A stretch of 64,000 bases of DNA, taken from the IMG/VR virus record IMGVR_UViG_3300035661_000005; one strand, given 5' to 3'. Shown in pieces: positions 416 to 17,375 of the stretch. Source of the stretch: a virus. Taxonomy: Duplodnaviria; Caudoviricetes. The first letter of the stretch is position 1. Every line of letters begins with the position of its first letter. Position numbers and translations under genes: made by a program. Below the pieces are notes generated by a model. It ran no database searches and was not told the DNA's origin. It saw nothing but the letters and a program-made list of their open reading frames with translations.

Positions 416-1396
416 ATGCCCGGTCCAGACCCTTCGCGGATGACAGCGGAAGAGGTGCTCGGCGAGATTCGCCAGCTCCGGGACAGCCTCCGCCGCGATG
501 CCCAGCGGCTCACGTCTCTGGGCCAAGTCCTCGCTCAGCGGGCCCGTCTTCAAGGGGGCCCCCACGGCCTCACCCCCGAGGAGGAGCCTGACCGGCCGAA
601 GCTCCTGGCGTGCGCCAGCGCCTGGTCCCGCACCGGGGGGATGGTGGACCAGGCCCTCGGCCGGGCGGCTATCTACGACCGGCTCCTCGTGCGGGGCCGT
701 GAGTATCGCCAGGAGGAGGCCCAGCGCCAGGCCGAGGCGGCGGCAAGACGGGCCCGGACCGAGGAGAGGCGGGCGGTGGCCCGTCCGTCCCCATTTGATG
801 ACCTTATGAGCCTTTACGGTGAGGAGCTGATCGATGCCCCCACGCCCTTACACCTCGGCCCGGCCCGTTCAGGCTGCCCTCGACCCCCACATGCGTCGGA
901 ACCACCCCCGGGTGGCGTCCCCTGTGCAGATGATGCCCCTGACCCCCCTGGAGCGTCGGGCTCGCCGCGAGGGTCTGGCAGGGAACACCCGCACGGCGAA
1001 CTACGCCGGGGGCATGGGCGGCTACACGAGTCTGGCCCAGAACGGGTCCTTCTTCTCCCCCCAGCTCTCGACCGACTTCCTGGAGCTGCCGCAGTCTCTC
1101 CGCGAGAAGCGGGAGATCTACCGGCACTTCTACAACTCCGAGCCCATCGTCGCGCAGTCGATCGACCTGCACACGGAGCTGCCGTTGTCGAAGGTGCGAC
1201 TGGCGGCCCCGAAGCCCATCTCGCACCCCGAGGGCTTCACGAGCCCCGAGCAGTACGGCAAGTACATCCTCTCCTTCTTCCAGAAGATGTCGAAGAAGGT
1301 CAAGCTGTTCCAGCGGCTGGCGACCATCGTCCGCCACTACTGGCTGGACGGCAACGTCGCCATCTTCGCCGAGGACCACCAGGTCCCGCTTCCTGA
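416..1396 (+). CDS. Hypothetical helical/coiled-coil protein; only the first ~140 aa look genuine
   Basis: ATG 3 nt after the previous stop. The N-terminal part is helical (EIRQLRDSLRRDAQRL; EEAQRQAEAAARRARTEE). The rest overlaps the portal gene out of frame and reads like a shadow frame. Confidence 0.5.
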   Translation: MPGPDPSRMTAEEVLGEIRQLRDSLRRDAQRLTSLGQVLAQRARLQGGPHGLTPEEEPDRPKLLACASAWSRTGGMVDQALGRAAIYDRLLVRGREYRQEEAQRQAEAAARRARTEERRAVARPSPFDDLMSLYGEELIDAPTPLHLGPARSGCPRPPHASEPPPGGVPCADDAPDPPGASGSPRGSGREHPHGELRRGHGRLHESGPERVLLLPPALDRLPGAAAVSPREAGDLPALLQLRAHRRAVDRPAHGAAVVEGATGGPEAHLAPRGLHEPRAVRQVHPLLLPEDVEEGQAVPAAGDHRPPLLAGRQRRHLRRGPPGPAS

Positions 1397-4208
1397 CGAC
1401 GTCGGCTACGAGCCCAAGAAGGTCCGCCGCAGCGTGGTTGACGAGCACGGGGCCCGCGAGGTCGACGACGTCGAGAGGGTGGAGAAGGACACCCGCGAGG
1501 AGGAGGAGGACGCCTACTACCGGAAGCACTACAAGGGGTGGGACCGGATCATCATTTTCCCGATCGACCAGGTCAAGGTCACGACCTTCGACTTCTCGGA
1601 CAAGATGCGGGTCGAGCTGATCCCCTCGGACCGGGATCGGGCCCTCATCCAGCAGGCGAAGATGGGCGACCCCATTGCGTCGGAGATGGTCGAGGAGATC
1701 CCTGCCGAGATCCGGGACTACATCGAGAACGGGCACCTGATCCCCCTCGGCGACGACCCGGACGAGGGGTCCTTCGTCCACATGCTCTCGGCCCGGAAGG
1801 GTGCGGGGGACGAGCTGGGCCAGTCCATCCTCGACCGCTGCCACATCGCAGGCACCCCGGTTCTCGTGAAACGGGACGGGGTGGTTCGGCAAGTCCACAT
1901 CGAGGATCTCGATCCCGACACGGATCGAGTGCTTTCGCACACGGGGGCGTGGCGTGAGTTCGAGGTCGGTGTCCGTCCCGTGGCGGAGGAGATCGCGCTT
2001 CTTCACGTCGCCAAGATCGAGCCGCCAGTGGGCTGCACGAAGGACCACAAGTACCCCGTGCTTCGCGACGGGTCCGTGGTCGAGCTTCCTGCGGAGGACA
2101 TCCGGGCTGGGGATTACCTTCAGGTCGCGCAGGTCCCGCTTTCTGGTTCGTTGGTTGGGGGCGTCGATCTCGCGGAGTTCATGCACGGGGTCGAGGCCGA
2201 CTACCGTGCCCGTCGCTCTGGAGGTACCTCAGACCTTCGCTGGGAGGTCGTGGACCGGACGACGCACTCGTTCACGGTCAGGTATGAGAAGGAACAGACG
2301 GACCCTCGAAAGGTCGGTCGCACCAACGACCTCAACGTCATCCTCGAATGGGCATCGACGCTCACGGAGCCCGTGGCGATGCGTTCGGCCGAAGTCTGCG
2401 AACGCTTCGGCCTTCATCCGGTCACGCTCAAGGAGATCCGGTCCCAACTCGTGTCGCTCGGGTACGGGGTGACGGTCGCCAAGGACAAGACCCTCAACTT
2501 CCCGCCCAACAAGTCCGGCTTGAAAGCCCCGACGAGCGCCGCCCACACCAAGACCTTCCCCATGCGGGTGCTCCCGCTGGTTGCAGGTTTCGGGTACTTC
2601 CTCGGTTTCTGGCTCGGGGACGGGCACATCACGAAGCACGAGGGGCTCGACTACGGTACGCTCGGGTTCACCTACGGCCCCAACGAGCCCGCGTCCGTTA
2701 AGGCGATCCAAGAGCAGATCAAGCCGATGCTCGACGTGCTCAAGGTCGTGTGGTCGGAGAGCCATGCTGGGGCTGGGGTCCACATGGACGGCTACCAGGA
2801 CGCTCTCGTGCGTTGGATGGCCGCAAATTTCGGGCACACGAGCGAGGACAAACACCTGCCCGCGTGGGTCTTCGACGCCAACAAGGGGTTCTTGCTCGGT
2901 CTCCTTCGAGGTTTCTGTGACTCCGATGGGGATGTCGTCCGCAAGAAAGACGGGAGCATCTGCGTCCGGTTCAACGGTACGAACCATGTGCTTATGGATC
3001 AGATTTTCTTGCTCTGCACGTCCCTCGGCATCCCGGTCTCCAAGACGAAGCCTACGAAGGAACGTTGGGTCAGGCAGGCGAACGGAGAGAGGGCTTGGGC
3101 GAAGCCCTTGCACTCCGTTCACTTTACGCATGGTCCTTCCGTCAAGACGTTCTTCGAGTCGGGTTTCCTTGCCAAGCGGCAAGATCCTGACGAGTGGAAG
3201 GACGGGCGCTCGGGGTCACGGCACGTCGAGCACGAGGGGAAGCTCTTCTACCGGGTGCAATCGGTCTCGACGGCCATGCACGAGGGGCCGGTCTACAGCC
3301 TCAACGTCCACGAAGACCACTCGTTTTTCGCTGGACTTTCGCGTACTTCCAACTGCCTTCGCACCCTGTACTACCGGGAGAAGCTCCGCCAGGCGCAGAC
3401 CCAGATCGCCAGCCGGGCGATGACCCCGAAGCGGATCATCTGGGCCGACGACCTCAGCGAAAACGACGTCGAGGCCCTTCGCGATCAGGTGGACTACGCC
3501 CTCGTCGACCCCGACTACTCGATCATCGTCAACTACGAGCTGCACTGGGAGGAGATGGGGAGCCGCGACAGGCTCCTCGACCTGTCCTCGGAGTACGAGA
3601 TCACGGAGCGCCACCTGCGCACCGGCCTGGGCGTGACCGAGAGCCTTCTCTCGGGCGAGACCCTCTACTCGGGCGACCGGCTCAAGCTCGAAGTGATCAA
3701 CCAGCGCTACCTGTTTCTGCGGGAGATCTTGCAGGAGTACGTCGAGGAGTACCTGTTCAAGCCCGTGGCCCGGCGCAAGGGCTTCATCGAACTCGACGAG
3801 TGGGGCGAGGAAGTGGTCCTCTACCCGTCCCTCAGCTTCACCCGCCTGCCGCTCCGGGACAGCCAGGACACGTTCGACGCGCTGTTCAACCTGTACCAGA
3901 AGGGGTCGGTCTCGATCGACGTCATCCTGGAGATGTTCAACATCGACCCGCACGACACCCGGCAGAAGCTCGAAAAGGATATGTTCACCGTCAACGACGC
4001 CACCTTCAACGAGGTGACGCGGGCCATCTACGGTGAAGTGGGCCGGATGCTCGCCGAGGGGTCGGACGTCAAGGAGAAGATCGCCACGAGCCTCGGTCTC
4101 ACCTTGACCCCCCCGCCGGCCGAGGGGGAGGACAGCAACCGCTTTGCCTCGACGAAGCCCCGGCCAAAGGCGGTCCCCTTTCCCCCGCCCCAGTCCCGCC
4201 GCGCCTAA
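834..4208 (+). CDS. Phage portal protein containing an intein (~619 aa after splicing)
   Basis: SD GAGGAG before ATG834. Portal-like motifs REIYRHFY..PIV..SIDLHTELPL, YWLDGN, LREILQEYVEEYLFKPV and LYQKGSVSIDVILEMFNID. Position at the front of the head module (protease, scaffold and capsid follow). Confidence 0.8.
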   Translation: MPPRPYTSARPVQAALDPHMRRNHPRVASPVQMMPLTPLERRARREGLAGNTRTANYAGGMGGYTSLAQNGSFFSPQLSTDFLELPQSLREKREIYRHFYNSEPIVAQSIDLHTELPLSKVRLAAPKPISHPEGFTSPEQYGKYILSFFQKMSKKVKLFQRLATIVRHYWLDGNVAIFAEDHQVPLPDDVGYEPKKVRRSVVDEHGAREVDDVERVEKDTREEEEDAYYRKHYKGWDRIIIFPIDQVKVTTFDFSDKMRVELIPSDRDRALIQQAKMGDPIASEMVEEIPAEIRDYIENGHLIPLGDDPDEGSFVHMLSARKGAGDELGQSILDRCHIAGTPVLVKRDGVVRQVHIEDLDPDTDRVLSHTGAWREFEVGVRPVAEEIALLHVAKIEPPVGCTKDHKYPVLRDGSVVELPAEDIRAGDYLQVAQVPLSGSLVGGVDLAEFMHGVEADYRARRSGGTSDLRWEVVDRTTHSFTVRYEKEQTDPRKVGRTNDLNVILEWASTLTEPVAMRSAEVCERFGLHPVTLKEIRSQLVSLGYGVTVAKDKTLNFPPNKSGLKAPTSAAHTKTFPMRVLPLVAGFGYFLGFWLGDGHITKHEGLDYGTLGFTYGPNEPASVKAIQEQIKPMLDVLKVVWSESHAGAGVHMDGYQDALVRWMAANFGHTSEDKHLPAWVFDANKGFLLGLLRGFCDSDGDVVRKKDGSICVRFNGTNHVLMDQIFLLCTSLGIPVSKTKPTKERWVRQANGERAWAKPLHSVHFTHGPSVKTFFESGFLAKRQDPDEWKDGRSGSRHVEHEGKLFYRVQSVSTAMHEGPVYSLNVHEDHSFFAGLSRTSNCLRTLYYREKLRQAQTQIASRAMTPKRIIWADDLSENDVEALRDQVDYALVDPDYSIIVNYELHWEEMGSRDRLLDLSSEYEITERHLRTGLGVTESLLSGETLYSGDRLKLEVINQRYLFLREILQEYVEEYLFKPVARRKGFIELDEWGEEVVLYPSLSFTRLPLRDSQDTFDALFNLYQKGSVSIDVILEMFNIDPHDTRQKLEKDMFTVNDATFNEVTRAIYGEVGRMLAEGSDVKEKIATSLGLTLTPPPAEGEDSNRFASTKPRPKAVPFPPPQSRRA
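1839..3353 (+). mobile_element. Intein (505 aa) with LAGLIDADG homing endonuclease, in the portal
   Basis: Block A C(1)HIAGTPVLV. Block B CTKDHKYPV. LAGLIDADG motifs YFLGFWLGDG and LLRGFCDSDG. C-terminal VYSLNVHEDHSFFAGLSRTSN followed by +1 Cys. The exteins rejoin as SILDR|CLRTL. Confidence 0.92.
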
Positions 4209-4232: not shown

Positions 4233-7200
4233 GTGCGCGACATCGGGGCCACCAAGGACACTCACGAGCGGGAAGAGGCGGAGGCCGAGCGGCTGGTGCG
4301 CCCAGCGCCCAAGGTCAAGCCTCCCCGTGACGACGCGAAGCGGGAGCACATTCGGCCCGAGCGGGACCCCGACACGGACGGGGACAAGGACACCAAGACG
4401 GACCCCGACATGAGCCTGAACCGCAAGAAGGTCGCGGGCTCCATGGCGGAGCGTCTGGCGGCGGAGTGGGTCCGCGTCCGCAACAAGACCAAGGACGAGG
4501 TCCCCCGCGTCCACCCCGACACGCTCCGGGACGACCCAGACCTCTACGAGAAGGTCCCCGACAACGAGCCCCATCGGGATGACGGCATCCGGCCCCCGCG
4601 CAAGCTCCCCCGCGTCCACAAGCCCCACTGCCACAAGGACCCCCTCCCTCACCCGAAGTGGCCCGACCCGCGTCCCCAGCCCAAGGCGGCTCCTCGTCCC
4701 CCCATGCCCCCGGAGACGCCCAAGACGCCCGAGCCCGAGAAGCAGCCCAAGGTCAAGCCCCCGGGGTGGGTGCGGGAGCGTCGCAACCTCAAGGCGGCCC
4801 TGGTGGGGCGCTGGCTGCGGCAGGCGGCCGAGGAGGGGGAGGAGGACCTCGTCACCGTCCGGCGCAAGGAGGACGGCAAGGTGGTGCGGGTCAAGCCCGA
4901 CACCCTCAAGGAGACCCCGAGCGCTTACGAGCCGATCGACGAGGACGAGGAGGGCGACGAGGGGGAGGAGGACCTCGTCACCGTCCGGCGCAAGGAGGAC
5001 GGCAAGGTGGTGCGGATCAAGCCCGACACCCTCAAGGAGACCCCGAGCGCTTACGAGCCGATCGACGAGGACGAGGAGGGCGACGAGGGCGAGGATGAGG
5101 GGCCCGAGGACGCCCCGCCCGAGGAGCCCGAGAAGCCCTCCCCCAAGGATGACGCGAAGCCGGACAAGCCCCCGTCGGCGAGCCCGAAGGAGCTGTACGA
5201 GCGCGGGGAGCACATCCGCAACTTGCTCAAGGGGGACCCTGCCATGGAGTCCCGGTTCAAGGGTCTGAACGACCCGACGAACCCCTTGCGGGTCATCTCG
5301 GACAAGGTCCCGGCCGGGGCCCTCCTCGGGGGGGCCAAGATCCAGGGCATCGAGACCGTGTCGGACATCATCGAGGCCCTGGCGGTCCCGAAGCCCCCGC
5401 CCGAGGCCAAGCCCAAGCCCAAGCCCGAGCCCGAGGACGAAGATGCCGGAGGGGGGGACGGCAAGTCACCCAAGGGCAAGCCGAACCGGCCGGCGGTGAC
5501 CCGCCCCCCAGCCACACCCGAGGACAAGGCCCGGGCCCAGCGGGTGCTCATCGAGCGCCTCGGGCCCCACCAGGCCAGGAAGCTGCTCAAGTCGGGCCTG
5601 CATCCGCACGACGCCGAGACGGTGGCGGCGGCCTTCGACGTGGCGAAGCGGCGTGAGGTGCGGCCCTCGGACCTCGACGACTACGTCGACAAGTCCAAGG
5701 CATTCTTCCAGACCGACCCCGACAAGGTGGGTCCCCCGTCGCAGGGCAAGGACGCCAAGGGCGTCGTGAAGCCCTACAAGGAACTCACCCCCAAGGAGCA
5801 GGGGGAGGCATGGCAGGACCACCGCAACAAGGTGGTGGCCATGAGCCTCGCCGTGCGCCGGCAGGTCTTCGACAGCTACAAGCGCATGGGTGCCCCCAAG
5901 GCGCTCGCTCAGGCCATGGTGACGGCCCGGCTGGGCGGGGAGAAGGGTCTCGCGGACAAGGTCTTCTCGAAGGCCATGGCGGACCCTGACAACGGGATGT
6001 CTCCGGGCAAGGCGAAGCACCTGTTCGACAACGTGAAGGACCCGGCCACGCGGGAGGTGGCGGCGGCCTACCTCCAGGGGCGGTCGTACCAGGACGCGCT
6101 CCACACGTACCTCGACCCGTCCTCATCCAAGGCGTTCCACGAGCGGATGCCCGCGGGGCAGATCGCCGGCCGTCTCACGGAGGCCACGGGCTTTCTGCGC
6201 GGCCGGGACAAGGAGCTGCCCGAGGACGTGCCGAAGAGGAACCTGGGCCGGCTCTTCCGCACTCGGATCTACAACCGCCTCGCGGGCATGAACGCCAAGA
6301 AGGCGGACAAGCTCCTACCCTACCTCGACACGCTCGACGCCGAGGACTACCGCACCGACAAGAAGGCGTGGAAGAAGCAGCACAAGGGCTGGACCCAGGA
6401 GACGAAGGCCCGGGAGAAGAAGCGCCAGAAGCTCAAGGCGGAGGCCGACCGGGAGGCGGAGGCGTGGAAGGCCGGGGACCCGGCGAAGCGGAGCAAGGAC
6501 CCGCCCTTGCCGTTCGAGGAGCGTATCCGCCAGGCGAAACTGGACAAGAAGGATGACCCGGCCGAGCCCCCGAAGCCGCTCAAGCCCCCGCGGTACGAGT
6601 GGCGCCCGAAGTCCCAGGCGGAGGCCGAGAAGGACTCGAAGGACCTCTTCGACGACCTCGTGAAGAGCCTCGGGGGGGAGGGGAAGGAGCCGAAGACGAA
6701 GACGGCCTGTCTTCTTCTCGGTCGGACCCTTGCACTTTCTTCTTGTACCCCGCGGGTGACGATGACGCGCATCGATCGGACGGCGGTCTACTGGGGCGTG
6801 GACCCCTACCCCGAGGACCCGTCTCAGCCCCCCTACGCCTACCAGGGTTGGGAGCAGGCTCGCGCCCGGGACATGGGCGAGTCGGACTTCCAGGCGATCC
6901 TGACGGCCGCCAAGGAGCGGCTCCGGTCGCCCCCGCTGTCCCCCGTCCCCGAGGGGATGGTGCCGGACGCCCGCTACCGTGCGGCGCTCGACCTGGCCAT
7001 CCGGGAGACCGGTGGGGGTCGCTACTCGGTCGGGGTTCACCCGACGATCTACAACACGCTCCTCGCCCGGCTCGCACAGGTGCGGGACCCCGGCACCTTG
7101 CAGACCCTCAGGGAAGCGAGTGAATCCTCTTATCCCCCCGTTCAGGAGAAGACCATGAAGCCCTCCATCCGTCTCCGCGCGTTCGCCCAGAAGTTCGCCT

Positions 7201-7493
7201 CCGACCAGCCCGCCCTCGCCTACGACCTCATCGAGCTGGCGGACAAGTTCGCCGAGGACGAGCAGGCCCAGCAAGACCAGCAGGGTCAGGGTCAGCAGAA
7301 GCAGGGTGGCGAGATGCCCCCGGCGCTCAAGAAGCACATGGAGGAGAAGGCGGAGGGCAAGGGCGACCAGGACCAGGGCCAGGACAAGCAGGCGTACATC
7401 GCCCTCAAGACCGAGATCGTCAAGGTCGCCCACGAGAACCCCGCGATCCGCGCCGCCCTCCTGCCGGCCCTCAAGCGGATCAAGCAGGGCTGA
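4233..7493 (+). CDS. Large low-complexity charged protein; putative internal head polyprotein with nested in-frame starts at 6762 and 7155
   Basis: Lys/Glu/Pro-rich, in the head module, with many [KR]-x-A motifs. Ends in the amphipathic motif IALKTEIVKVAHENPAIRAALLPAL. Confidence 0.7.
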   Translation: MRDIGATKDTHEREEAEAERLVRPAPKVKPPRDDAKREHIRPERDPDTDGDKDTKTDPDMSLNRKKVAGSMAERLAAEWVRVRNKTKDEVPRVHPDTLRDDPDLYEKVPDNEPHRDDGIRPPRKLPRVHKPHCHKDPLPHPKWPDPRPQPKAAPRPPMPPETPKTPEPEKQPKVKPPGWVRERRNLKAALVGRWLRQAAEEGEEDLVTVRRKEDGKVVRVKPDTLKETPSAYEPIDEDEEGDEGEEDLVTVRRKEDGKVVRIKPDTLKETPSAYEPIDEDEEGDEGEDEGPEDAPPEEPEKPSPKDDAKPDKPPSASPKELYERGEHIRNLLKGDPAMESRFKGLNDPTNPLRVISDKVPAGALLGGAKIQGIETVSDIIEALAVPKPPPEAKPKPKPEPEDEDAGGGDGKSPKGKPNRPAVTRPPATPEDKARAQRVLIERLGPHQARKLLKSGLHPHDAETVAAAFDVAKRREVRPSDLDDYVDKSKAFFQTDPDKVGPPSQGKDAKGVVKPYKELTPKEQGEAWQDHRNKVVAMSLAVRRQVFDSYKRMGAPKALAQAMVTARLGGEKGLADKVFSKAMADPDNGMSPGKAKHLFDNVKDPATREVAAAYLQGRSYQDALHTYLDPSSSKAFHERMPAGQIAGRLTEATGFLRGRDKELPEDVPKRNLGRLFRTRIYNRLAGMNAKKADKLLPYLDTLDAEDYRTDKKAWKKQHKGWTQETKAREKKRQKLKAEADREAEAWKAGDPAKRSKDPPLPFEERIRQAKLDKKDDPAEPPKPLKPPRYEWRPKSQAEAEKDSKDLFDDLVKSLGGEGKEPKTKTACLLLGRTLALSSCTPRVTMTRIDRTAVYWGVDPYPEDPSQPPYAYQGWEQARARDMGESDFQAILTAAKERLRSPPLSPVPEGMVPDARYRAALDLAIRETGGGRYSVGVHPTIYNTLLARLAQVRDPGTLQTLREASESSYPPVQEKTMKPSIRLRAFAQKFASDQPALAYDLIELADKFAEDEQAQQDQQGQGQQKQGGEMPPALKKHMEEKAEGKGDQDQGQDKQAYIALKTEIVKVAHENPAIRAALLPALKRIKQG
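4833..5089 (+). repeat. In-frame 126-bp (42-aa) tandem duplication
   Basis: Copies start at 4833 and 4959. The unit is EGEEDLVTVRRKEDGKVVR(V/I)KPDTLKETPSAYEPIDEDEEGD, and I saw one substitution (GTC/ATC). Confidence 0.95.
6736..6746 (+). promoter_or_regulatory. Putative late-promoter motif TTTCTTCTTGT, intragenic
   Basis: Consensus match inside ORF 4233-7493, 15 nt before in-frame ATG6762. Confidence 0.5.
7123..7133 (+). promoter_or_regulatory. Putative late-promoter motif AATCCTCTTAT, intragenic
   Basis: Best-consensus match, followed by SD AGGAG (7144-7148) and in-frame ATG7155. Confidence 0.6.
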
Positions 7494-7528
7494 ACCCTCC
7501 CCCCGACTTGCACCGAAGGAACACGATC

Positions 7529-7966
7529 ATGCCGATCAAGATCGCAAAGGAAGACGCCCAGTCCCTGCTCCCCCGCCTCGACAAGATGGCCGGGTACATC
7601 CAGGCCAACTACAAGGCGTGGGGCTGCCCGGAAGCCGCCGCTCGTGACATGGTGGCCACGCTCGACAAGCTGGCCGACGAGATCGAGGTCGGGGCCTTCG
7701 GGGCCGAGTCCTTCCAGATCCGTCAGGTGGCCGAGGTGGTCGGGGAGACCGCGGCCTCCAAGGTCGCCTCCGATCTGGCCCAGCGCCGGGCGCAGGTGAT
7801 CCAGCAGGACAAGAACGAGTCCTACATGGGCACGTTCCGCAACCCGATGGCTCCCGTGCAGACCGAGGCCGACGAGCCCTACATGCGCCTCTACGGCGAC
7901 GACCAGTCGAGCGCCGTGATTCACGGCGAGTCGACGTCGGGCCGCGACCTCGCCCCGGGGCACTGA
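7529..7966 (+). CDS. Hypothetical head-module protein
   Basis: SD GAAGGA before ATG7529. Helical, with KIA/KLA/KVA motifs. Confidence 0.7.
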   Translation: MPIKIAKEDAQSLLPRLDKMAGYIQANYKAWGCPEAAARDMVATLDKLADEIEVGAFGAESFQIRQVAEVVGETAASKVASDLAQRRAQVIQQDKNESYMGTFRNPMAPVQTEADEPYMRLYGDDQSSAVIHGESTSGRDLAPGH

Positions 7967-8683: not shown

Positions 8684-11377
8684 ATGGCCTTCCGTAAGTT
8701 TGCCAACGCGACCATTGTCAAGCCCGACATCTCGTCGGCCGGGTGGGAGAACCTCCGGGTCCACGGGAACAAGCAAGCCTCCCGGATCGTACTCGACCAG
8801 TACGACCCCAGTGAGTTCATGCTCACGCACTGCACGATCGTCGCTTCGGTGGACACGGAGGTGTCCCCGGAGCCGGTCGGTCGTCAGATGGTGGACGGCT
8901 TCGAGGTCGACCGGCGCTACCCCGACTGGCTGGTGACGCCCGCGACGTCCAAGTACGTCAACAACAACAACGACTGCTGGGAGCGCAAGCTGCTCCTCGC
9001 GTGCTTCAAGACCTTCATCGGCGGGGAGAACTACGTCGAGCACGTCCAGATCCCCGAGCTGAGCAAGGGCAAGATCCTGGACGCCGCCAGCCGGGACATC
9101 GGGGACTCGATCTACATCGACATCCTGATCGCGACGGCCCGGAAGTTCCGCCCCCTGATCTCCTCGATCCAGCGGCGGGAGCTGAAGACCCTCAGCATGG
9201 GCTGTTTCCTCCCGGGGACTCCCGTCACGATGGCCGACGGCACTCGTCTCCCCATCGAAGAGGTTCGACCCGGTGCGATGGTTCTGACCCACAAGGGCAG
9301 GGCTCGCGAGGTGCTGAACCAGCAGATCCGTGGTGGTCGCTGGCAGATGCGACGGATCAAGGTCAAGGGGGTGCCGGATGCCATCGAGGCCACAGGCACA
9401 CACCCGTTCTTCGTCCTCCGCCCGGCGTCTGTTTGCGGGTGTGGGTGTGGGGAGGCTCTTTCGACGAAGGATGCTGACCCCGTTCGTCGGATGACCAAGC
9501 GGTTCAAGGGGGGTCATGACAAGCGTGTGCTCAACCCGAACGGCAGCTACTCCCTCGACGAATACAAGGCTCGCCAGGAGAAGCTCACGGAGATCCAGAG
9601 CCTCAAGGTCGAGAAGGTTCGTGCCGACGAATTGCGAGTGGGGGACTATGTGGTCTTCCCGAAGCTCGACTCTGATGTGATCGGTGACCCAGGGCCCGCC
9701 AAGGCTCGGCTCCTCGGGTACTTCCTGGCCGAAGGCAGCTTCATCAAGAGCAAGGGTGTGCCGTCCGAGGTGCAGTTCAACTTCTCCTTGGCTGAGAAGG
9801 AGACCCTCGTTGAAGAGGTTGTTGGGCTTCTTCGCGAGGAGTTCCCCGGTTGTGCCCCTTGGGTACAAGACCGTAACACGGCAACGGTACACGTCTCGGG
9901 GAAGGGCATCGCCGCTTGGTTCAAGCAGCATGGGGGTGAGTACTCCCACCAAAAGCGTCTGAGCCCCGAGGCCATGCAGTGGTCAGTCGAATCCCAGGCG
10001 CATTTGCTTGGGGCTTGGCTCAACGGGGACGGTCACAAGCACAGCGGCGGGCACTCGGTGGGTACGACCACCTCCTACGACCTCATGTGCCAGCTTCATA
10101 CGCTGGCGGTACGAGGCGGCATCCCGGTGTGGGCAGACTGCGTGTTTGGGGGCCGAACGGTGACTTTCGCCGAGGCCGTGGTCAACGGGCAGGCACTTCG
10201 TCACGACGAGACGGGCAAGCTCGCGGCCTTCAACATCTACTTCCCCCAATCGTCTTCGGCGATGTTGATGGGGGCGTCCGCCAAGGCCCCACGCGAGGGT
10301 TCTCGCAAAAAGCACCAGCATCTCCGGGCACTCGACGACAAGGTCATCTTCCCGATCACCAGCATCGAGTCCTTCGTGTACGAGGGCTTCGTCCACGACA
10401 TCGAGGTCGAGGAAGACCACTCGTATCAGGTGCATGGCTTCGGGGTCTCCAACTGCTCGGTCGAATTCACGATCTGCACTCGCTGCGGGAACGTGGCTTA
10501 CGACGAGACGCAGCTCTGCCCGCACATCAAGTACTTCAAGGGCAACAAGTTCATCGACGACCACGGGGTCGAGCGCAAGATCGCTGAGCTGTGCGGCCAC
10601 ATCAACGAGGAGCCCGGTTCGGTCAAGTTCATCGAGGGCTCCTGGGTTGCGAACCCTGCCTTCGAGGGCGCCGTCCTACGCTCGATCCTATCGGCCGAGG
10701 ATGTGCCCGACCTCGATCGCAAGATCCAGGTCGCCTTCTCGCAGCCGGCGCGGGTCACGGACCCGGCCATCATTCAGAAGGCTGCTCGTCGCCTCTTCGC
10801 GCAGGATGAATTCCCGGGTGTCGATCAGAACGGCGGGGATGCCCCCAAGAAGGATGAGGACCCGCTCGACAAGATGGTCGACACGCTGGCGGATGCGCTG
10901 CGTGAGCGGGCCATGGAGAAGGTCCGCAGTCAGATCAGCAAGGACGATGCGGCTCGGGCACTCCCGGATGAGAACCGGAACACGACGCTCATCAAGGATG
11001 CCTTCAAGCACCCGGAATGGCGGAACATCGCTCGGGCCGTCATGGGTTCGGTCCGGGATCCGAAGGTCGCCCGCAAACTCCTCCTCGGGATGATTCTCTA
11101 CAAGACCGGGGGCTGGGGTGCGGTTCGCGCCTCCAAGGCCCTCTCGGGCAAGGAGATTCTGGGGCTTGTCCGCCTGTTCGAGATGTCTTCGAAGCGCGCC
11201 TCGAAGGCCGGGGACTCCCGTCTTTATCGAGCGGTTGTGGCGGTTGGTGGAATCAGCAAGTACGTAGATGAGAAGAGCTACCTGGCGGCTTGTCGTCGGG
11301 TGGTTGGACGCGACCTCACGGACTCCGAGAAGGTGACCCTGATCTCGAAGGGCCATCTTTATTCTCTGGGGTCGTGA
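8684..11377 (+). CDS. Prohead/capsid maturation protease containing an intein (~480 aa after splicing)
   Basis: Lies between the portal and the scaffold/capsid genes. Motifs NNNNDCWERKLL..CFKTFIG..NYVEH, spliced TLSMG|CSVEFTICTRCGN (candidate catalytic Ser in SMG) and FIEGSWVANPAF, consistent with HK97/herpes-fold phage proteases. Confidence 0.7.
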   Translation: MAFRKFANATIVKPDISSAGWENLRVHGNKQASRIVLDQYDPSEFMLTHCTIVASVDTEVSPEPVGRQMVDGFEVDRRYPDWLVTPATSKYVNNNNDCWERKLLLACFKTFIGGENYVEHVQIPELSKGKILDAASRDIGDSIYIDILIATARKFRPLISSIQRRELKTLSMGCFLPGTPVTMADGTRLPIEEVRPGAMVLTHKGRAREVLNQQIRGGRWQMRRIKVKGVPDAIEATGTHPFFVLRPASVCGCGCGEALSTKDADPVRRMTKRFKGGHDKRVLNPNGSYSLDEYKARQEKLTEIQSLKVEKVRADELRVGDYVVFPKLDSDVIGDPGPAKARLLGYFLAEGSFIKSKGVPSEVQFNFSLAEKETLVEEVVGLLREEFPGCAPWVQDRNTATVHVSGKGIAAWFKQHGGEYSHQKRLSPEAMQWSVESQAHLLGAWLNGDGHKHSGGHSVGTTTSYDLMCQLHTLAVRGGIPVWADCVFGGRTVTFAEAVVNGQALRHDETGKLAAFNIYFPQSSSAMLMGASAKAPREGSRKKHQHLRALDDKVIFPITSIESFVYEGFVHDIEVEEDHSYQVHGFGVSNCSVEFTICTRCGNVAYDETQLCPHIKYFKGNKFIDDHGVERKIAELCGHINEEPGSVKFIEGSWVANPAFEGAVLRSILSAEDVPDLDRKIQVAFSQPARVTDPAIIQKAARRLFAQDEFPGVDQNGGDAPKKDEDPLDKMVDTLADALRERAMEKVRSQISKDDAARALPDENRNTTLIKDAFKHPEWRNIARAVMGSVRDPKVARKLLLGMILYKTGGWGAVRASKALSGKEILGLVRLFEMSSKRASKAGDSRLYRAVVAVGGISKYVDEKSYLAACRRVVGRDLTDSEKVTLISKGHLYSLGS
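9203..10453 (+). mobile_element. Intein (417 aa) with LAGLIDADG endonuclease, in the protease
   Basis: C(1)FLPGTPVTMADG. Block B ATGTHPFFV. LAGLIDADG motifs LLGYFLAEGS and LLGAWLNGDG. C-terminal VHDIEVEEDHSYQVHGFGVSN followed by +1 Cys. Confidence 0.93.
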
Positions 11378-11420: not shown

Positions 11421-12764
11421 ATGCGCGAGCGCACCACTTGGAACCGTTCGGCCGCCACCCAGAAGAAGGCGGACCCGTACCTGATGAACCAGGATCACGT
11501 CAGCCAGCAGCCGAAGGCCGACGACTACGTGACCGGCGACCCCTCGACCTTCGCCGAGGATGTTCACCCGTCGACGGGCACCTGGAAGGCCGAGTACTCG
11601 GGCGGCGAGGTCAAGCGCAACGAGATCGGGATGCCGGAGGTCCGCAAGGACACCTTCAGTCACCCCGAGAAGACCGCCTCCGAGCACCGCATCCTCCTCA
11701 AGAAGGCGGACGTGGCCATCAAGGTCGCTTCCCGGATGCTCGGTGCCAACGCCCCCGAGGCGGCGGTCGAGGATCAGGCGGTCGCCCTGATGCACATGCC
11801 CGACGATGCCCTCATCAACACCTTCAACCGTCTCGCGGAGCAGACCGTTCCGGCGGCGGAGCAGCAGGCCATGCAGCAGCAGGCCATGCAGCAGCAGGCG
11901 TTCGAGCAGGCCCAGACGGCGTGCAAGCAGGCGATCGAAGCCGGCGACATGGAGGCCGCGCAGCAGGCGATGGACCAGATGCAGGCGGCCAAGCAGGCGC
12001 TCCAGGGCGGCCAGCAGGTCATGGCGAACCAGGGCCAGGGTCAGCAGGGCCAGGGTCAGCAGGGCCAGGCCGACAAGAAGCAGGCGAACCAGGGTCAGGC
12101 CAACCAGGGTCAGGGTCAGCAGGCCAAGGACGACCAGGCCGAGAAGAAGCAGGCCAACCAGGGTCAGGCAGAGCAGGGTAAGGACCAGCAGGGCCAGCAG
12201 AAGCAGGCCGAGCAGGGCCAGGTCAGCCAGGCCCAGGTCGCCCAGATGGTGCAGCAGGCGGTGCAGCAGGCGCTCGCCCAGCAGCAGCAGGCCCAGCAGC
12301 AGCAGCAGGCCCAGCAGCAGCAGGCCCAGCAGCAGCAGGCCCAGCAGCAGGTCGCCCCGGCGGCCCAGCAGCAGCAGGCCCAGCAGCAGGTCTCGGACGA
12401 CGCCCTCCTCGCCGACATGCTCGGTGAGGAAGTCCCCGTCGAGGTGACCTCGGAGGCCGACATCGAGATGGAGCCCGCTCCGATGGACATGGCCGACGCC
12501 GGCCTCGGTCCGGAGGACGAGGTGCTCATGCAGCTCTTCGCGGCCGACGAGGGCGCGCAGCAGGAGCCCGAGAAGAAGGATGACCAGGGTCAGGGCAAGA
12601 CGGCCGGTATGGCTCGTACGGCCTCGACCCGCACGGTCGGCACGCGTCCGACCCAGGGCGTCAGCCGTGTCGGCGGCGGCGTCGCGGGTCAGGGTGGCCA
12701 GGACGTCGGCAAGCTCGCGGCCCTGTGGCCCTCGGCTCCGGACGTCAGCGGCGCCTTCCGCTGA
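11421..12764 (+). CDS. Capsid scaffolding protein (Gln-rich)
   Basis: Sits between the protease and the decoration/capsid genes. Helical and low-complexity with an acidic stretch, and a short conserved-looking C-terminus (LAALWPSAPDVSGAF) like a capsid-binding tail. Confidence 0.65.
   Translation: MRERTTWNRSAATQKKADPYLMNQDHVSQQPKADDYVTGDPSTFAEDVHPSTGTWKAEYSGGEVKRNEIGMPEVRKDTFSHPEKTASEHRILLKKADVAIKVASRMLGANAPEAAVEDQAVALMHMPDDALINTFNRLAEQTVPAAEQQAMQQQAMQQQAFEQAQTACKQAIEAGDMEAAQQAMDQMQAAKQALQGGQQVMANQGQGQQGQGQQGQADKKQANQGQANQGQGQQAKDDQAEKKQANQGQAEQGKDQQGQQKQAEQGQVSQAQVAQMVQQAVQQALAQQQQAQQQQQAQQQQAQQQQAQQQVAPAAQQQQAQQQVSDDALLADMLGEEVPVEVTSEADIEMEPAPMDMADAGLGPEDEVLMQLFAADEGAQQEPEKKDDQGQGKTAGMARTASTRTVGTRPTQGVSRVGGGVAGQGGQDVGKLAALWPSAPDVSGAFR
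11860..12390 (+). repeat. Coding CAG-rich simple repeats (poly-Q, QQQA and QGQ units)
   Basis: Repeated cagcagcaggcc, cagggtcag and aagaagcaggc(c/g)aaccag units inside the scaffold ORF. Confidence 0.9.
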
Positions 12765-13553: not shown

Positions 13554-14435
13554 ATGGCTACCATGGTCTCGAACGAAACCAAGCAGCAGGTCATCAGCGA
13601 GTACATCCGCACGGCCGCCGGTCGTGCGAAGCTCGCCGCTTCGATGATCCAGCCCCTACGCCTCCGCCGCGACTACACCGCGGTCGGGCGCAAGACCTTC
13701 CTGGTCGAGCAGCTCCCCGACGGGGCGCTGCCGATCTACGACAAGGACCCGGACGTCACGGCGTACGTGGTCGGCGAGGAGGGTGAGAACATCCTCGCGA
13801 TCCAGAAGCCGCGCCGCGTGATCTTCCCGCTGTTCGAGGTCGCCTCGAACCCGGAGATCCCGCTCACGCAGATCAAGGAGCGCCGCTTCGACCTGATCGA
13901 GCGCGCCCAGGATCTCGCGAAGGCGCAGATCCAGGCCGCCGAGGACGAGCGCGTCTTCACGGTCCTCGACTCGATCGCCGTGTCGGGCTTCGACACGCTC
14001 CCGGGTCAGACGAACCCGGACGTGGCCGTGGTCGCCCCGATCTCGCCGAGCGCCCTCGCCGACGCCTTCGCCGAGATCGAGCGTCACGACCTGCGCGTGG
14101 CCAGGATCTACATGAACGCGACGGACTACGCGGACATCCGCAAGTTCGGCCGCGACATCCTGGACATCGAGAGCCAGGCGACGCTGCTCAAGACGGGTCT
14201 GCAGGCGAGCCTCTGGGGCGCCCAGATCATCACCAGCCGCCTCGTCCCGGTCGGCTACGTCTACATCTGCTGCGAGCCCGAGAACTTCGGTCGGTTCCCG
14301 GTCCGCACGGAGCTGACGGTCCTCTCGGCCGACGATCCGAAGGCCCGCACGATCGGGTTCTCGTGCTTCGAGAACATCGGCATCGGCGCCTTCAACCCGC
14401 GCGGCCTCACCCGCATGGTCGTGACCCGCGCCTGA
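13554..14435 (+). CDS. Major capsid protein, compact HK97 fold (293 aa)
   Basis: Strong SD, the most biased codon usage in the window, and a terminator downstream. Spine helix RFDLIERAQDLAKAQIQAAEDERVF, A-domain IYMNATDYADIRKF and LWGAQIITSRLVPVGYVY, C-terminal FENIGIGAFNPRG. Confidence 0.85.
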   Translation: MATMVSNETKQQVISEYIRTAAGRAKLAASMIQPLRLRRDYTAVGRKTFLVEQLPDGALPIYDKDPDVTAYVVGEEGENILAIQKPRRVIFPLFEVASNPEIPLTQIKERRFDLIERAQDLAKAQIQAAEDERVFTVLDSIAVSGFDTLPGQTNPDVAVVAPISPSALADAFAEIERHDLRVARIYMNATDYADIRKFGRDILDIESQATLLKTGLQASLWGAQIITSRLVPVGYVYICCEPENFGRFPVRTELTVLSADDPKARTIGFSCFENIGIGAFNPRGLTRMVVTRA

Positions 14436-14465
14436 TCCGGCCGGGCCTACGGGCCAGTGAGTGTT

Positions 14466-14506
14466 CGAGGGCGGCCTCCTACGGGAGTGCCGCCCTCGGC
14501 GTTTTT
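14466..14506 (+). terminator. Rho-independent terminator after the capsid gene
   Basis: Stem CGAGGGCGGC-CTCC / GGAG-(T)-GCCGCCCTCG with a cUACGg loop, followed by GCGTTTTTGT. Confidence 0.8.
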
Positions 14507-14594
14507 GTCTCAGTGTCTCCCAAGCCCCTATCGCCCGAACAGCGGAACATCTAGGATCCTGTCGAATTCGATCCCAGGTGCCAGTCCGACCATT

Positions 14595-14605
14595 TTTTCA
14601 CTTAT
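14595..14605 (+). promoter_or_regulatory. Putative late-promoter motif TTTTCACTTAT
   Basis: Near-consensus copy after the terminator, 52 nt before ATG14658. Confidence 0.4.
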
Positions 14606-14657
14606 CCCTTTTGAGTATGGGGCACCTTCACGTCTTTAGTGCCCGAAAGGATATCGG

Positions 14658-15776
14658 ATGGCACCGAATCAGATCAGCTACCGTGCGGGCCAGATGCAGA
14701 AGTTCCTCGCGCAGCGGACCTTCATGCTCGGTCAGACGGGGATCCAGATCTCCCAGGGGATGGAGGTCCTCTTCGACGGCACGAGGGTCTCGGTCGACGG
14801 CAACGAGGTGACGCTGCCCCAGCTTCGCGGGGCCATCCGTCAGGGGTGGCTCGTGCTCGAAGCCGAGTACGACGAGGAGAACACCGAGGCATCGCGTCCC
14901 GTAGCGGCGAACATCCAGGTGCGGCACGCCACCAAGGGTGGGAACCCCTTCATGAACCAGGCGCCGACCCGTTCGGCGATGACCATGACGGAGTCGGACG
15001 AGCGGGAGGTCGGACAGGTCGCCTCTCACGCGCAGGCGGCTCGGCAGGCCAACCAGCAGTACCGCCGGGGTCAGCCGGTCGACACGCCGCAGGGCTCCTC
15101 CGTGGAGATGCAGGACGGGGTGCCGGTGCGCCGGCTCAAGACGGCCGCCGGGGAGAGGTCCAAACAACAGCGGACCGTTCTGACGTCCGAGTCGGCTGGA
15201 GATGCCATTCGTCGGGCCAATTCGGTCCAGGTGGACCCGGGGCAGGGCATCACGCGGGAGGAGATGCTCGAACGCATGTCGCCCGAGCAGCGTGAGGGGT
15301 ACCTGGCGACCACGGGTGCCCTCAAGGCGGCGCACTTCGACGACGGGGCGACGCAGGCCAAGATCGTAGGCCGCGTGACGGCTTCCAAGGCCCCCAAGAC
15401 GCAGGACGGGATCAGCGCCAAGGTGACCACGGGTGGTGGCATTGAGACGGCCGATCCTTCGACGGGCACGACCGAGAAGCCGGTCGAGACGGTGCGCGTG
15501 GAGGACGGGATCACCTTCCGCGGGACGAACCTCTCCAAGCCGAAGCCCCCGGTCGTCAAGGAGACGGGGGACACGGACGTCCGCCGCCGGGTCGCCAAGG
15601 CCATCTGCCCGGACTTCCCGGACAACTACGACTTCACGCTCCCGGAGCGGAAGAAGCTGGCGCGGCTGCAGGCGGACTACGAGGATCGTGAGGACGTGCT
15701 GCGGGCGGTCTTCGCCGCCGAGTCGGACGCCTTCAAGCTGCTGCTCGTGGCCGAGTTCCCGGCGGTCTTCGCGTAG
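14658..15776 (+). CDS. Hypothetical protein
   Basis: SD GAAAGGA, phage-like codon usage. Beta-rich N-terminus, disordered middle and helical C-terminus. Confidence 0.75.
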   Translation: MAPNQISYRAGQMQKFLAQRTFMLGQTGIQISQGMEVLFDGTRVSVDGNEVTLPQLRGAIRQGWLVLEAEYDEENTEASRPVAANIQVRHATKGGNPFMNQAPTRSAMTMTESDEREVGQVASHAQAARQANQQYRRGQPVDTPQGSSVEMQDGVPVRRLKTAAGERSKQQRTVLTSESAGDAIRRANSVQVDPGQGITREEMLERMSPEQREGYLATTGALKAAHFDDGATQAKIVGRVTASKAPKTQDGISAKVTTGGGIETADPSTGTTEKPVETVRVEDGITFRGTNLSKPKPPVVKETGDTDVRRRVAKAICPDFPDNYDFTLPERKKLARLQADYEDREDVLRAVFAAESDAFKLLLVAEFPAVFA

Positions 15777-15780
15777 AGCG

Positions 15781-15791
15781 TTTCTTCTTGT
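15781..15791 (+). promoter_or_regulatory. Putative late-promoter motif TTTCTTCTTGT
   Basis: Identical to the 6736 copy, 14 nt before GTG15806. Confidence 0.5.
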
Positions 15792-15805
15792 GCGCGGTCT
15801 ACGGC

Positions 15806-16078
15806 GTGGAGCCCAAGACCAAGCCCGTCGGAAACGTCTACCTGATCACCAACACGGTGAACGGGAAGAAGTACGTCGGACGGACTACGGTCACGCTCGC
15901 AGGACGGTGGCGGGCTCGGAACGCTGAAGCCCTCACCAAGGCGAGGGTTGCACGAACGGCAGCAGCCCTAGTTAGGGATGCCACCAGTTCTCCTGAAGAG
16001 GCAGCACGTAGGGTGCGCCTACGGGAAGCGTGCAGGCGGTACAACGAGCGGAAGCGGGAGCAACATGCCCACGTCTGA
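15806..16078 (+). pseudogene. Truncated GIY-YIG homing endonuclease remnant
   Basis: GNVYLITNTVNGKKYVGRT is a canonical GIY-YIG motif pair followed by RW. The sequence then loses similarity, and I see no catalytic Glu helix or Asn motif. Confidence 0.75.
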
Positions 16079-17375
16079 CATCACTCTGAAGCAAGCGTCG
16101 GGCGTCCTGATCTACTTGACCGAGGAGCTGGGCGACGCCCGTCTACGGGCCGCCCAGCTCAAGACCTACGTGCAGGAGGCGCTCGACCTCGTCGAGAAGT
16201 CCACGCACCGGGATCACTTCTTCGAGGTCGCAGCGAACCTCATTCACGGGATCCCCGACACGCTCTTCAAGCTCGACAAGGCGCTCGATGCGGCGGCCAT
16301 GGCCGCCGCCCGCATGGACTACGAAGAGATCAAGCAAGGACTCAAGCCCGAGAAGGCTGAGGAGCTGGAGCGCGTTCTCGACGACGTTCGTCTCCGCTAC
16401 CTGAACCGCCGCTCGAACGATCCGGCCGTCAAGGAGACCCCCATGAACGCGCAGACCGCTTCCGCCATGCTGACCCAGATCGCCGAGGAGATCGACGCGA
16501 CTGGGGTGGTTCCCGTCGCCAAGGTGGCCCAGCTCATCGACACCCTGGAGCAGGGGACCAAGACGGCTTCCACGCAGCCGAAGCGGGCGTCCGCGGCCAT
16601 CCGTGCGGCGGCGGACTTCATCGTCAGGACGGCCAATCCGAGCCGCGCCAAGCTCGCCTCGAACCTCCGCAAGATCCTGGCGGACTCCGTGAACCCGACC
16701 GCCGGTGCCGGCGAGGAGTTCCAGAAGGAGAACCCCAAGATCACCGACGAAGAGGTCAAGAAGATCAACGAGGAGCACGAGAAGAACAAGGACAACTTCA
16801 AGGCCAAGAAGGCGGCGGAGCCAGGCAGCCTGACCTCTCCCGACGATGTGGCGGAGATGCTTCCTCGGATGTTCGAGATCATGGTCCATTCGGCCAAGGA
16901 CGCGCACATCGCCATCACGTCCGGCAACGAGGCCAAGGCAGTCCAGAAGGCCATGGGGACCATCATGAACGCGGCCCACGCGGTTCGGATGATCGCGCCG
17001 GATGCTGGCAGCGACCTCATGGACATCGCCAACAAGGCTTTCCGGCTCATCTCGAAGATCAAGACCGAGGCCCGTAAGGTGAACGTCATCGAGGCCCGCT
17101 TCGAGCGCGGCAAGCCGGCCGATCCCACCGAGAACATGTCCAAGGAGGACGCGGATCGCTGGTGGGAGGAGCACGAGAAGAACAAGGACAACTTCAAGGC
17201 TGCCACGATGACCGGCCCGGTCGCCGAGGAGGCGAAGGAGTCGCGGTTCGAAGAGGGCAAGCCGGCCGATCCCACCAAGAACATGGATAAGTTCGACAAG
17301 GACGAGTGGTGGGAGCAGAACGACAAGCACAAGGACAACTTCAAGGCGGCCTCGACCAAGCCCTGGTGGGAGTGA
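16065..17375 (+). CDS. Putative internal head protein with three C-terminal repeats
   Basis: SD GGAG before ATG16065. Repeats end in EEHEKNKDNFKA(A/K), and two carry RFE(R/E)GKPADPT.NM...WWE. Many [KR]-x-A motifs. Confidence 0.75.
   Translation: MPTSDITLKQASGVLIYLTEELGDARLRAAQLKTYVQEALDLVEKSTHRDHFFEVAANLIHGIPDTLFKLDKALDAAAMAAARMDYEEIKQGLKPEKAEELERVLDDVRLRYLNRRSNDPAVKETPMNAQTASAMLTQIAEEIDATGVVPVAKVAQLIDTLEQGTKTASTQPKRASAAIRAAADFIVRTANPSRAKLASNLRKILADSVNPTAGAGEEFQKENPKITDEEVKKINEEHEKNKDNFKAKKAAEPGSLTSPDDVAEMLPRMFEIMVHSAKDAHIAITSGNEAKAVQKAMGTIMNAAHAVRMIAPDAGSDLMDIANKAFRLISKIKTEARKVNVIEARFERGKPADPTENMSKEDADRWWEEHEKNKDNFKAATMTGPVAEEAKESRFEEGKPADPTKNMDKFDKDEWWEQNDKHKDNFKAASTKPWWE

Follow-up and report, generated by a model that had tools for sequence, protein, structure and literature searches.

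Conserved [KR]-x-A-[SA] sites in head-assembly proteins of an uncultured jumbo phage are most likely a prohead-protease substrate motif of the herpesvirus type

Assemblin, the herpesvirus protease (pUL26 of herpes simplex virus (HSV) and pseudorabies virus (PrV), UL80a of human cytomegalovirus (HCMV); MEROPS S21), cleaves after Ala in two places: in its own chain, at an R-site that closes the protease domain (YLQA-T in PrV), and in the scaffold, at an M-site close to the C-terminus (VQA-S), a cut that frees the scaffold from the capsid protein (PMC4498786). In large myophages one short motif is common to the scaffold, the protease itself, the portal and internal head proteins (PMC10052503). 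The enzymes of this second group, T4 gp21, phiKZ gp175 and SPN3US gp245 (MEROPS S77), cut after Glu (L/I-x-E; S/A/G-x-E). The HK97 prohead protease cuts after Lys, and HK97 gp5 is cut after Lys103. Here we describe a 64,000-nucleotide stretch of viral DNA (Duplodnaviria; Caudoviricetes; IMG/VR record IMGVR_UViG_3300035661_000005; hereafter the window) whose head-assembly proteins carry a conserved short motif, [KR]-x-A followed mostly by Ser or Ala. By sequence, the window covers the head and tail module of an uncultured jumbo phage of high GC content whose relatives include LR745208, Tunturi_5, phage G and Stormageddon, and on comparative grounds the motif is most likely a prohead-protease substrate motif of the herpesvirus type.

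The candidate enzyme is encoded at 8684..11377 on the plus strand, as are all genes of the window. Its 897-aa product contains an intein at residues 174-590 (nt 9203-10453), inserted at LSMG/C, and ends in an extension of about 200 residues; in homologues that lack the intein (P0001-P0013), C-x-VEFT-x-C follows LSMG immediately. Neither extein matched Pfam even at E values up to 10, Peptidase_S21/S77/S78 and PF04586 included, PHROGs returned only families of unknown function, and a sequence search of both exteins against solved structures gave nothing significant. A profile search placed the protein in a family of 2488 clusters at 50% identity with a typical length of 470-540 aa, many members of which reach 900-1960 aa with one or more inteins, and its homologues in Tunturi_5 (gp331) and Stormageddon (gp13) carry the annotation maturation protease. 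An AlphaFold2 (AF2) model of residues 1-320 of homologue P0014, 57% identical to the N-extein of the window, had a mean predicted local distance difference test score (pLDDT) of 80.9, and above 90 over residues 50-250. The top rows in Foldseek were herpesvirus proteases and T4 gp21 (probability 0.85-0.97, E about 0.01-0.04). VIA-align gave Z scores of 10.6 for the varicella-zoster virus protease (root-mean-square deviation (rmsd) 2.7, 115 aligned), 10.1 for PrV, 10.0 for T4 gp21 (rmsd 3.4, 130 aligned) and 8-9 for the HSV, HCMV, Epstein-Barr virus and Kaposi's sarcoma-associated herpesvirus proteases; the top 34 entries were all assemblin-type, and unrelated MCE-domain rows scored below 7. From these structural matches we conclude that the ORF 8684 product (ORF, open reading frame) is, as modeled, an assemblin-fold prohead protease whose sequence family is not yet curated.

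Head-protein orthologues drawn from 86 related loci gave, once redundancy was removed, sets of 13-44 sequences whose identity is typically 30-60%; for the protease, 49 members, mostly less than 50% identical to one another, were aligned. Five non-homologous sites, one behind the protease domain, two in the scaffold and one each in ORF 15978 and ORF 17376, share a single logo. With positions numbered from a presumed cut after the Ala, P3 is Lys or Arg in at least 96% of sequences at every site (48/49, 40/40, 40/40, 22/23 and 27/28), and P1 is Ala without exception (49/49, 40/40, 40/40, 23/23 and 28/28, or 180/180). P1' is Ser in about 60-83% of sequences at four of the sites and mostly Ala in ORF 17376 (Ala in 14/28, Ser in 4/28). 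Their flanks are variable or gapped.

The post-domain site of the protease, KAAR699 (nt 10778-10789), has A, V or T at P2, hydrophobic residues at P4/P5 and Ser at P1' in 30/49 members. The linker around it, about 70 residues long, cannot be aligned elsewhere and has pLDDT below 50 in the P0014 model; [KR]xA[SA] occurs within this linker in 35/49 sequences, against 7.5 in shuffles (maximum 15). In the Gln-rich scaffolding protein (11421..12764), KTAS84 (nt 11670-11681) and RTAS399 (nt 12615-12626, 48 residues from the C-terminus) are kept in 39/39 orthologues, with Ser or Ala at P1' in 37-40 of 40 sequences. In two loci (L019 and L023) the first of these sites has an insertion between HPE and RQAS and the motif is still kept. 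The second is preceded by variable Gln-rich sequence and followed directly by a tail, TRTVGTRPxxGVSxxGG...LWxSAPDV, which is the most conserved part of the scaffold; the Gln-rich middle of the protein carries many KQA copies that hold no fixed position. ORF 15978 (15978..17375; a start at 16065, as in the preliminary description of this DNA, is plausible too) encodes a helical head-module protein of no known family. At its site, KTAS195 (nt 16560-16571), [KR]xA is kept in 32/34 orthologues between gapped, variable flanks, as KRAA, RQAS, RLAS, RTAE, KLAT, KAAS or RAAS, and P4/P5 are hydrophobic as in the protease. An AF2 model puts this site in a non-helical loop with pLDDT below 50 between two helices (residues 164-173, counted from the 16065 start). 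The fifth site, RTAA152 (nt 17829-17840), lies in a 286-aa protein with a SWIM-type zinc finger match (17376..18236); it is kept in 31/34 orthologues, with a flank conservation of 0.24.

Other head proteins carry candidates that are conserved to varying degrees. Near the protease N-terminus are KFAN5 (nt 8696-8707) and KQAS30 (nt 8771-8782); the family widely keeps the start M-A-F-x-[KR]-[YF]-A and a second A-S placed some 12 residues ahead of the core, usually as [KR]-x-A-S, with one subfamily differing at P3. ORF 4233 (4233..7493) encodes a charged 1086-aa protein of no known family, which gave no match in Pfam and PHROG scans and whose gene stands where Tunturi_5 has gp328 ('DNA ejection protein') and Stormageddon has gp12. 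Its candidates, KTAC823 (nt 6699-6710) and RTAV849 (nt 6777-6788), lie upstream of a conserved VYWGVxPY domain. Most of its orthologues have [KR]xA[SA] and then [YF]S[ST] 20-45 residues ahead of the VY[WH]G anchor, and 19/23 have a second [KR]xA directly before it. The two small head-module proteins at 7508-7966 and 7970-8680, of which the second ends in a zinc ribbon, hold the conserved sites KIAK11, KMAG26, KGAS113 (nt 8306-8317) and KTAA163 (nt 8456-8467), with site conservation of 0.76-0.86 and moderately conserved flanks. In the portal (834..4208), RTAN53 (nt 990-1001) is a weak candidate for a site near the N-terminus; [KR]xA[SNA] occurs close to this position in about 7 of 11 orthologues, one of them phage G with KMAS. 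Two further portal instances were rejected: the RVAS26 column aligns with P-[YH]-x-A and is not conserved, and RFAS1103 is not conserved either. In the major capsid protein (13554..14435), RTAA19 and KLAA26 are kept in Tunturi_5 and LR745208, and phage G has ETEE with an RVAL in a shifted register. Since the capsid protein is 90-95% conserved throughout, conservation says nothing about these two instances, and by alignment they are ambiguous as sites.

Two side observations concern proteins just described. In ORF 4233 orthologues (loci L019, L023, L036 and L009) a motif R-V-[VA]-x-R-[FY]-L occurs near residue 80, after NYKNVGGS, and again directly after a KTA-A site, for example GEKTAARVAARFV. 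It is often itself a [KR]xA instance, and the window copy is degenerate: KVAGSMAERLAAEWV. Orthologous portals stop at ...E-E-G-R-F and the window portal continues for about 21 further residues (4143-4208), ASTKPRPKAVPFPPPQSRRA, so that RFAS1103 lies in a tail unique to the window; by this alignment the stop codon of the window portal appears to have moved.

The orthologue sets show an excess tied to one spacing of the motif residues. In the scaffold the ratio of observed to expected Lys/Arg-to-Ala pairs is 2.60 at a spacing of +2 and at most 1.05 at every other spacing. The +2 ratio is 2.21 for ORF 7508, 1.88 for ORF 7970, 1.65 for ORF 14658, 1.47 for ORF 15978, 1.42 for the portal and 1.36 for the protease; across the head-assembly families the excess is high only at +2, with other spacings near 1. 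The capsid (0.74), the decoration protein (1.00) and two tail-side families (0.75 and 0.66) show no excess at +2, so that the comparison of head with tail proteins proposed in the preliminary description separates enriched head-assembly families from tail-side families without enrichment. When all 400 a.b patterns were ranked over nine head-protein families with equal weight per family, K.A came second behind the low-complexity Q.Q, or first when the scaffold was left out, and R.A came fourth. Ser is 2.2-fold over background after the motif Ala, and Thr (2.1-fold) and Gln (1.8-fold) are favored at the x position. [KR]xA leads the 22 control patterns in the number of sites conserved at 0.8 or above (16) and ranks second in mean conservation (0.346, behind [DE]x[L] at 0.351), and the remaining arrangements of Lys/Arg and Ala average 0.17-0.27. 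The ranking gave no sign of a Glu P1 in the nine families: L.E, I.E, S.E, A.E and G.E all fall outside the 20 most enriched pairs, and the sole x.E pattern among those 20 is F.E at rank 14 (ratio 1.45).

The enrichment recurs at the same gene positions in phage G, Tunturi_5, Stormageddon and LR745208, at GC contents of 30-65%. The preliminary description had cautioned that Ala, Lys and Arg are common in GC-rich proteomes, and this range answers the caution, as enrichment persists down to phage G at 30% GC, whose examined proteins contain only 2-8% Ala. The phage G protease gp19 has 10 [KR]xA against 3.4 expected (p<0.0005), one of them within VKTAA ahead of the core and others within EKVAS and LKIAS of the C-terminal tail; the scaffold-position gp21 has 8 against 4.0, and the portal has three [KR]xA[SA] against 0.65, at both termini. 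In Tunturi_5 the scaffold-position gp332 has 20 against 7.8, spacing +2 alone being raised (20; other spacings 3-12), gp328 has 25 [KR]xA against 13.2 and 11 [KR]xA[SA] against 2.6, and the protease carries LKTAN, GKTAAT and RKKVAS. Stormageddon gp13 (locus L087, 6959-10228) is a 1089-aa fusion of an assemblin-fold domain with a long scaffold-like region, acidic and then basic; it has 24 instances against 13.5, with KTAG 42 residues from its end, [KR]xA[SA] reaches 7 against 1.3 in gp12, and the portal has 6 against 1.6. The scaffold-position ORF of LR745208 has 21 against 10.6 and its protease 12 against 5.3. Tail, capsid and decoration proteins of the four phages were not enriched; the Tunturi_5 sheath and fibres were at or below expectation, and the Stormageddon capsid protein, ribonucleotide reductase and ligase likewise gave no enrichment. 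It was also observed that Stormageddon has no separate scaffold gene ahead of the capsid gene, and that the strongest motif excess seen anywhere belongs to a 624-aa ORF upstream of the LR745208 portal (locus L003, 761-2632), with 19 [KR]xA against 6.8 and 10 [KR]xA[SA] against 1.3.

Within the window itself the picture is more modest. The preliminary description had listed [KR]xA tetrapeptides as candidate protease tags at termini and domain joints of the portal (RVAS26, RTAN53, RFAS1103), ORF 4233 (KVAG66 through KVAH1064), the protease (KFAN5, KQAS30), the scaffold (KKAD15/94, KTAS84, KVAS101, RLAE137, KQAN220/243, KQAE261, KTAG393, RTAS399) and ORF 15978 (KQAS38 through KAAS456). Every one of them is present where it was placed. 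Against 2000 shuffles per protein, [KR]xA is enriched in the scaffold (14 observed, 5.7 expected, p<0.0005; [KR]xA[AS] 5 against 1.1) and in ORF 15978 (16 against 9.9, p=0.024; [KR]xA[AS] 7 against 1.9, p=0.001), and ORF 7970 has three [KR]xA[AS] against 0.3, but the portal (12 against 9.1), ORF 4233 (23 against 20.3) and the protease (10 against 10.5) are at expectation and the capsid protein is not enriched (3 against 3.9). Enrichment over shuffled sequence therefore holds for two of the five proteins listed. Both of them contain internal repeats (KKQANQGQ in the scaffold, KNKDNFKA in ORF 15978) that inflate the counts. Because most head proteins sit at shuffle expectation, the listed instances seen from the window alone are mostly background. 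Conservation in orthologues was likewise found for a small subset of the list, about 8 of 43 instances, and not for the remainder, which includes seven other sites of ORF 15978. The list as a whole thus does not stand as a set of real sites, and by alignment most of its instances are unconserved chance background. The placement at termini and domain joints survives for the conserved subset: the post-domain linker of the protease, the loop of ORF 15978 and the scaffold site 48 residues from the C-terminus. A narrowing to [KR]TA gave a suggestive excess in the head module (12 against 3.9) and none elsewhere (8 against 9.8); it was dropped because T had been picked post hoc and x is A, V, T or Q in relatives. 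As a side observation, [KR]xA summed over proteins is depleted in the tail and fibre block (18244-36418; 29 observed, about 42 expected), the opposite of the head block (102 observed, 75 expected).

Because the Ala-Ser elements are laid out as in assemblin, we read the conserved elements as cleavage sites with Ala at P1, and we put at roughly 55% the probability that the conserved [KR]-[ATV]-A/[SA] sites (the slash marking the presumed scissile bond) are cut by the protease and are arranged like the release and maturation sites of herpesviruses. The enzyme would cut after the invariant Ala, with Ser at P1', as herpesvirus assemblin does. It would cut itself in the disordered linker about 45 residues past the catalytic domain, at KAA/R699 (mostly KAA/S in relatives), and so shed its C-terminal extension of some 200 residues, as happens at the R site of herpesviruses; a further self-cut may fall in its N-terminal segment, at KQA/S30. 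In the scaffold, a cut at RTA/S399 would detach the conserved 48-residue C-terminal tail, the presumed capsid-protein holder, like the M site. A second cut would fall at KTA/S84, and the KQA copies of the Gln-rich middle would probably be cut too, so that fragments can leave the shell. The copies may let the scaffold core be broken down to small pieces, as T4 gp22 is. Accessory proteins would be trimmed at one conserved site each, KTA/S195 in ORF 15978, RTA/A152 in ORF 17376 and residues 823-851 in ORF 4233, and the portal N-terminus is possibly trimmed as well. The prohead protease candidate of phage G is reportedly described, in the abstract of Gonzalez et al. (2020), as 'responsible for processing gp27'; if this holds, the capsid N-terminus (RTAA/KLAA; GRVAL in phage G) may also be a substrate.

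Several observations weigh against this reading. The P3 residue is Lys or Arg and not the hydrophobic residue of the herpesvirus consensus. KQAS30 lies in a predicted helix of the P0014 model and could be structural, as could the second scaffold site and the sites of ORF 7970, which adjoin conserved blocks. H57, H129 and S180 (the Ser of LSMG), which together with E128, D142 and D155 are invariant in the 49 diverse protease members, are candidate catalytic residues by invariance and not by residue-level superposition. The UvrD helicase, a non-head protein, has 30 [KR]xA against 20 expected (p=0.01), a raw excess comparable to that of the head proteins. A scan for conserved islands (pair conservation of at least 0.75, flank conservation of at most 0.35) returned 43, of which 5 were [KR]xA, the commonest pattern; its rate of 5% is no higher than that of [ILVM]xP, so the scan does not discriminate. 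A weight matrix built from the post-domain site of the protease and run over the window proteome gave four matches against 0.9 in the head module at a score of at least 10, one of them the protease's own site. Since its best match was a non-head protein of 180 aa (56862-57404) and the helicase scored too, the matrix is unusable as a predictor. Our literature search, which did not extend to the phage G mass-spectrometry study of Gonzalez et al. 2020, returned no N-termini or semi-tryptic peptides for the clade; the 2024 phage G preprint (bioRxiv 10.1101/2024.12.16.628780) and the tail paper report no cleavage sites, and the search found no Tunturi_5 paper and no cleavage data for mycobacteriophages or Gordonia phages. 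Two broader claims of the preliminary description fare differently here. That the phage uses an Ala-P1 specificity gains comparative backing from the fold, the five-site logo, the +2 spacing and the other lineages, although this specificity is not without precedent, being that of assemblin. That the motif could predict the virion-internal proteome has to be abandoned, since the helicase scores as well as the head proteins and a bare three-residue motif therefore cannot predict what is packaged.

An alternative that we regard as unlikely takes the conserved [KR]-x-A-[SA] elements for genuine short linear motifs that are left uncut and serve as docking or packing elements or as a recognition tag. 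Contacts could be made with the capsid shell, the portal or the scaffold, and a tag could be read by something like a Clp-type unfoldase; ClpP and ClpX are both encoded by phage G and detected in its particle proteomics (bioRxiv 10.1101/2024.12.16.628780). The helical position of KQAS30 in the protease and the strongly conserved C-terminal block that opens at the second scaffold site would fit such a role, as would the RVAxRFL tag, often a [KR]xA instance, adjoining the KTA site in ORF 4233 orthologues. Docking does not readily account, however, for one four-residue logo with an invariant small residue in disordered or variable linkers of five unrelated proteins, a pattern typical for protease sites rather than docking helices. 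The carriers of the motif are moreover the canonical substrates of prohead proteases, and an assemblin-fold enzyme whose relatives prefer Ala-Ser is encoded next to them.

It is quite improbable, and already disfavoured by the data above, that the motif is a by-product of composition, secondary structure, repeats and shared ancestry with no function of its own. This would explain why the portal, ORF 4233 and the protease of the window are not enriched, why most listed instances are unconserved and why a helicase passes as enriched; the scaffold and ORF 15978 repeats inflate the counts, and orthologue counts are not independent of one another. Yet the excess is confined to +2 and is absent at +1, +3, +4 and in the reverse order, whereas helical periodicity would favour +3 and +4. 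It also persists in Ala-poor phage G, and composition leaves unaccounted for an Ala that is invariant at five sites in 180 aligned sequences while neighbouring columns are free to vary. We see only a slim chance that the sites are cut after Lys/Arg, with a basic P1 and Ala at P2', like the Lys-Ser junction of HK97. The basic residue is conserved at 96% or more and HK97-type prohead proteases share the fold, but the strictly invariant residue is the Ala, followed by Ser, which matches P1 and P1' of assemblin, and the residue after Lys/Arg varies among small and beta-branched ones, which would be unusual for a P1'.

Set beside the described systems, assemblin is the nearest structural relative of the window protease, and the two systems share the fold (Z 8-10.6), the invariant small Ala followed mostly by Ser around the presumed scissile bond, and the location of sites just behind the protease domain and near the scaffold C-terminus, before a presumed capsid-binding tail. 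Like pUL26, Stormageddon gp13 combines protease and scaffold-like region in one protein. The phage enzymes differ in that P3 is Lys/Arg at all five sites and not Val/Leu/Ile, in the lack of detectable sequence similarity (no Pfam match), in a Cys-rich insertion resembling a zinc site and, in the window, an intein, and in that the window scaffold is a separate gene and not nested; in the phages, cleavage is a proposal. T4 gp21 has the fold in common with the phage protease (Z 10.0), and the window head proteins follow the shared-short-motif logic of T4, phiKZ and SPN3US, with Ala preceded by a basic residue in place of Glu. The HK97 gp4-type enzymes (Pfam Peptidase_S78) are likewise maturation proteases for an HK97-fold capsid encoded between portal and capsid genes; unlike them, the window enzyme has no PF04586 match, its capsid protein lacks a delta domain and its scaffold is separate.

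More tentatively, and with somewhat less than even odds, a very large clade of jumbo and large phages may mature its heads with an assemblin-fold protease that keeps the full herpesvirus logic of an Ala/Ser cut, an R-like self-release, an M-like cut of the scaffold tail and, in some members, a pUL26-like fusion. It would cover at least 2488 protease clusters at 50% identity, from phage G, Tunturi_5 and Stormageddon-like actinophages to hundreds of uncultured genomes of up to 529 kb. If true, Ala-Ser specificity and the two-site layout either predate the split of herpesviruses and tailed phages or arose twice, and the motif would add a functional link, through specificity and site layout, to the structural link between assemblin and phage proteases. 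Prohead-protease specificity is known for few phage groups only, the large myophages T4, phiKZ and SPN3US among them with a Glu P1. The raw motif is far too short to mark the packaged proteome by itself, but combined with orthologue conservation a defined [KR]-x-A/S motif would allow the mature ends of scaffolds, proteases and internal head proteins to be predicted in hundreds of uncultured huge-phage genomes. It offers a concrete and cheap hypothesis for existing liquid chromatography-tandem mass spectrometry data on phage G virions, and is directly testable on three cultured phages, phage G, Tunturi_5 and Stormageddon.

The genomic setting agrees in these relatives. The window has a GC content of about 64%, and its first 18 kb form the head-assembly block, in which the order of portal (834), protease (8684), scaffold (11421), decoration (12888) and capsid (13554) is the same in Tunturi_5, phage G and Stormageddon. 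The portal matches phrog_16240 (E 1.6e-19), a decoration-position protein lies at 12888-13514, the capsid protein has the HK97 fold (PF05065; phrog_2522, E 4.7e-53), and a further head-block ORF follows at 14658-15776. Capsid protein identity is 83% with the 485-kb uncultured phage LR745208, 48% with Tunturiibacter phage Tunturi_5, 37% with Bacillus phage G gp27 and about 28% with cluster C mycobacteriophages and with Gordonia and Rhodococcus phages. IMG/VR has 580 relatives; capsid proteins of the best 80 (loci L007-L086), on contigs of up to 529 kb, are 90-95% identical. The neighbouring scaffold, protease and accessory proteins are only 30-60% identical, a contrast that speaks of unusually strong constraint on the shell protein.

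Three inteins interrupt genes of the window: in the portal (LAGLIDADG type, residues 336-840, nt 1839-3353, with Pfam intein matches), in the prohead protease (at LSMG/C) and in the UvrD-type helicase (51848-56275, outside the head module; Intein_splicing match at residues 626-935). Across the family, protease homologues grow to 1963 aa and match in as many as five separate stretches, a pattern suggesting that inteins have entered this gene repeatedly. In two relatives a free-standing LAGLIDADG_2 homing endonuclease gene lies directly 3' of the capsid gene (L005 15265-15984, L006 8908-9627); the corresponding gap in the window, 14436-14657, has no such gene. Upstream of the portal, ORF 416-1396 is protein-like for about 140 residues, ending exactly where the portal ATG (834) starts. 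Its frame stays open to 1396, giving a 563-nt out-of-frame overlap with the portal gene, a portal-frame stop lies at 828-830 just upstream of the portal ATG, and a single weak orthologue match was found for the ORF. An assembly indel or an unusual gene end is a possible explanation of this overlap. Locus L004 (ENA contig_23727) carries phage head genes and, behind them, pieces of bacterial efflux, ABC-transporter and aminotransferase genes, its protease ORF ends in junk, and it is probably a chimeric assembly.

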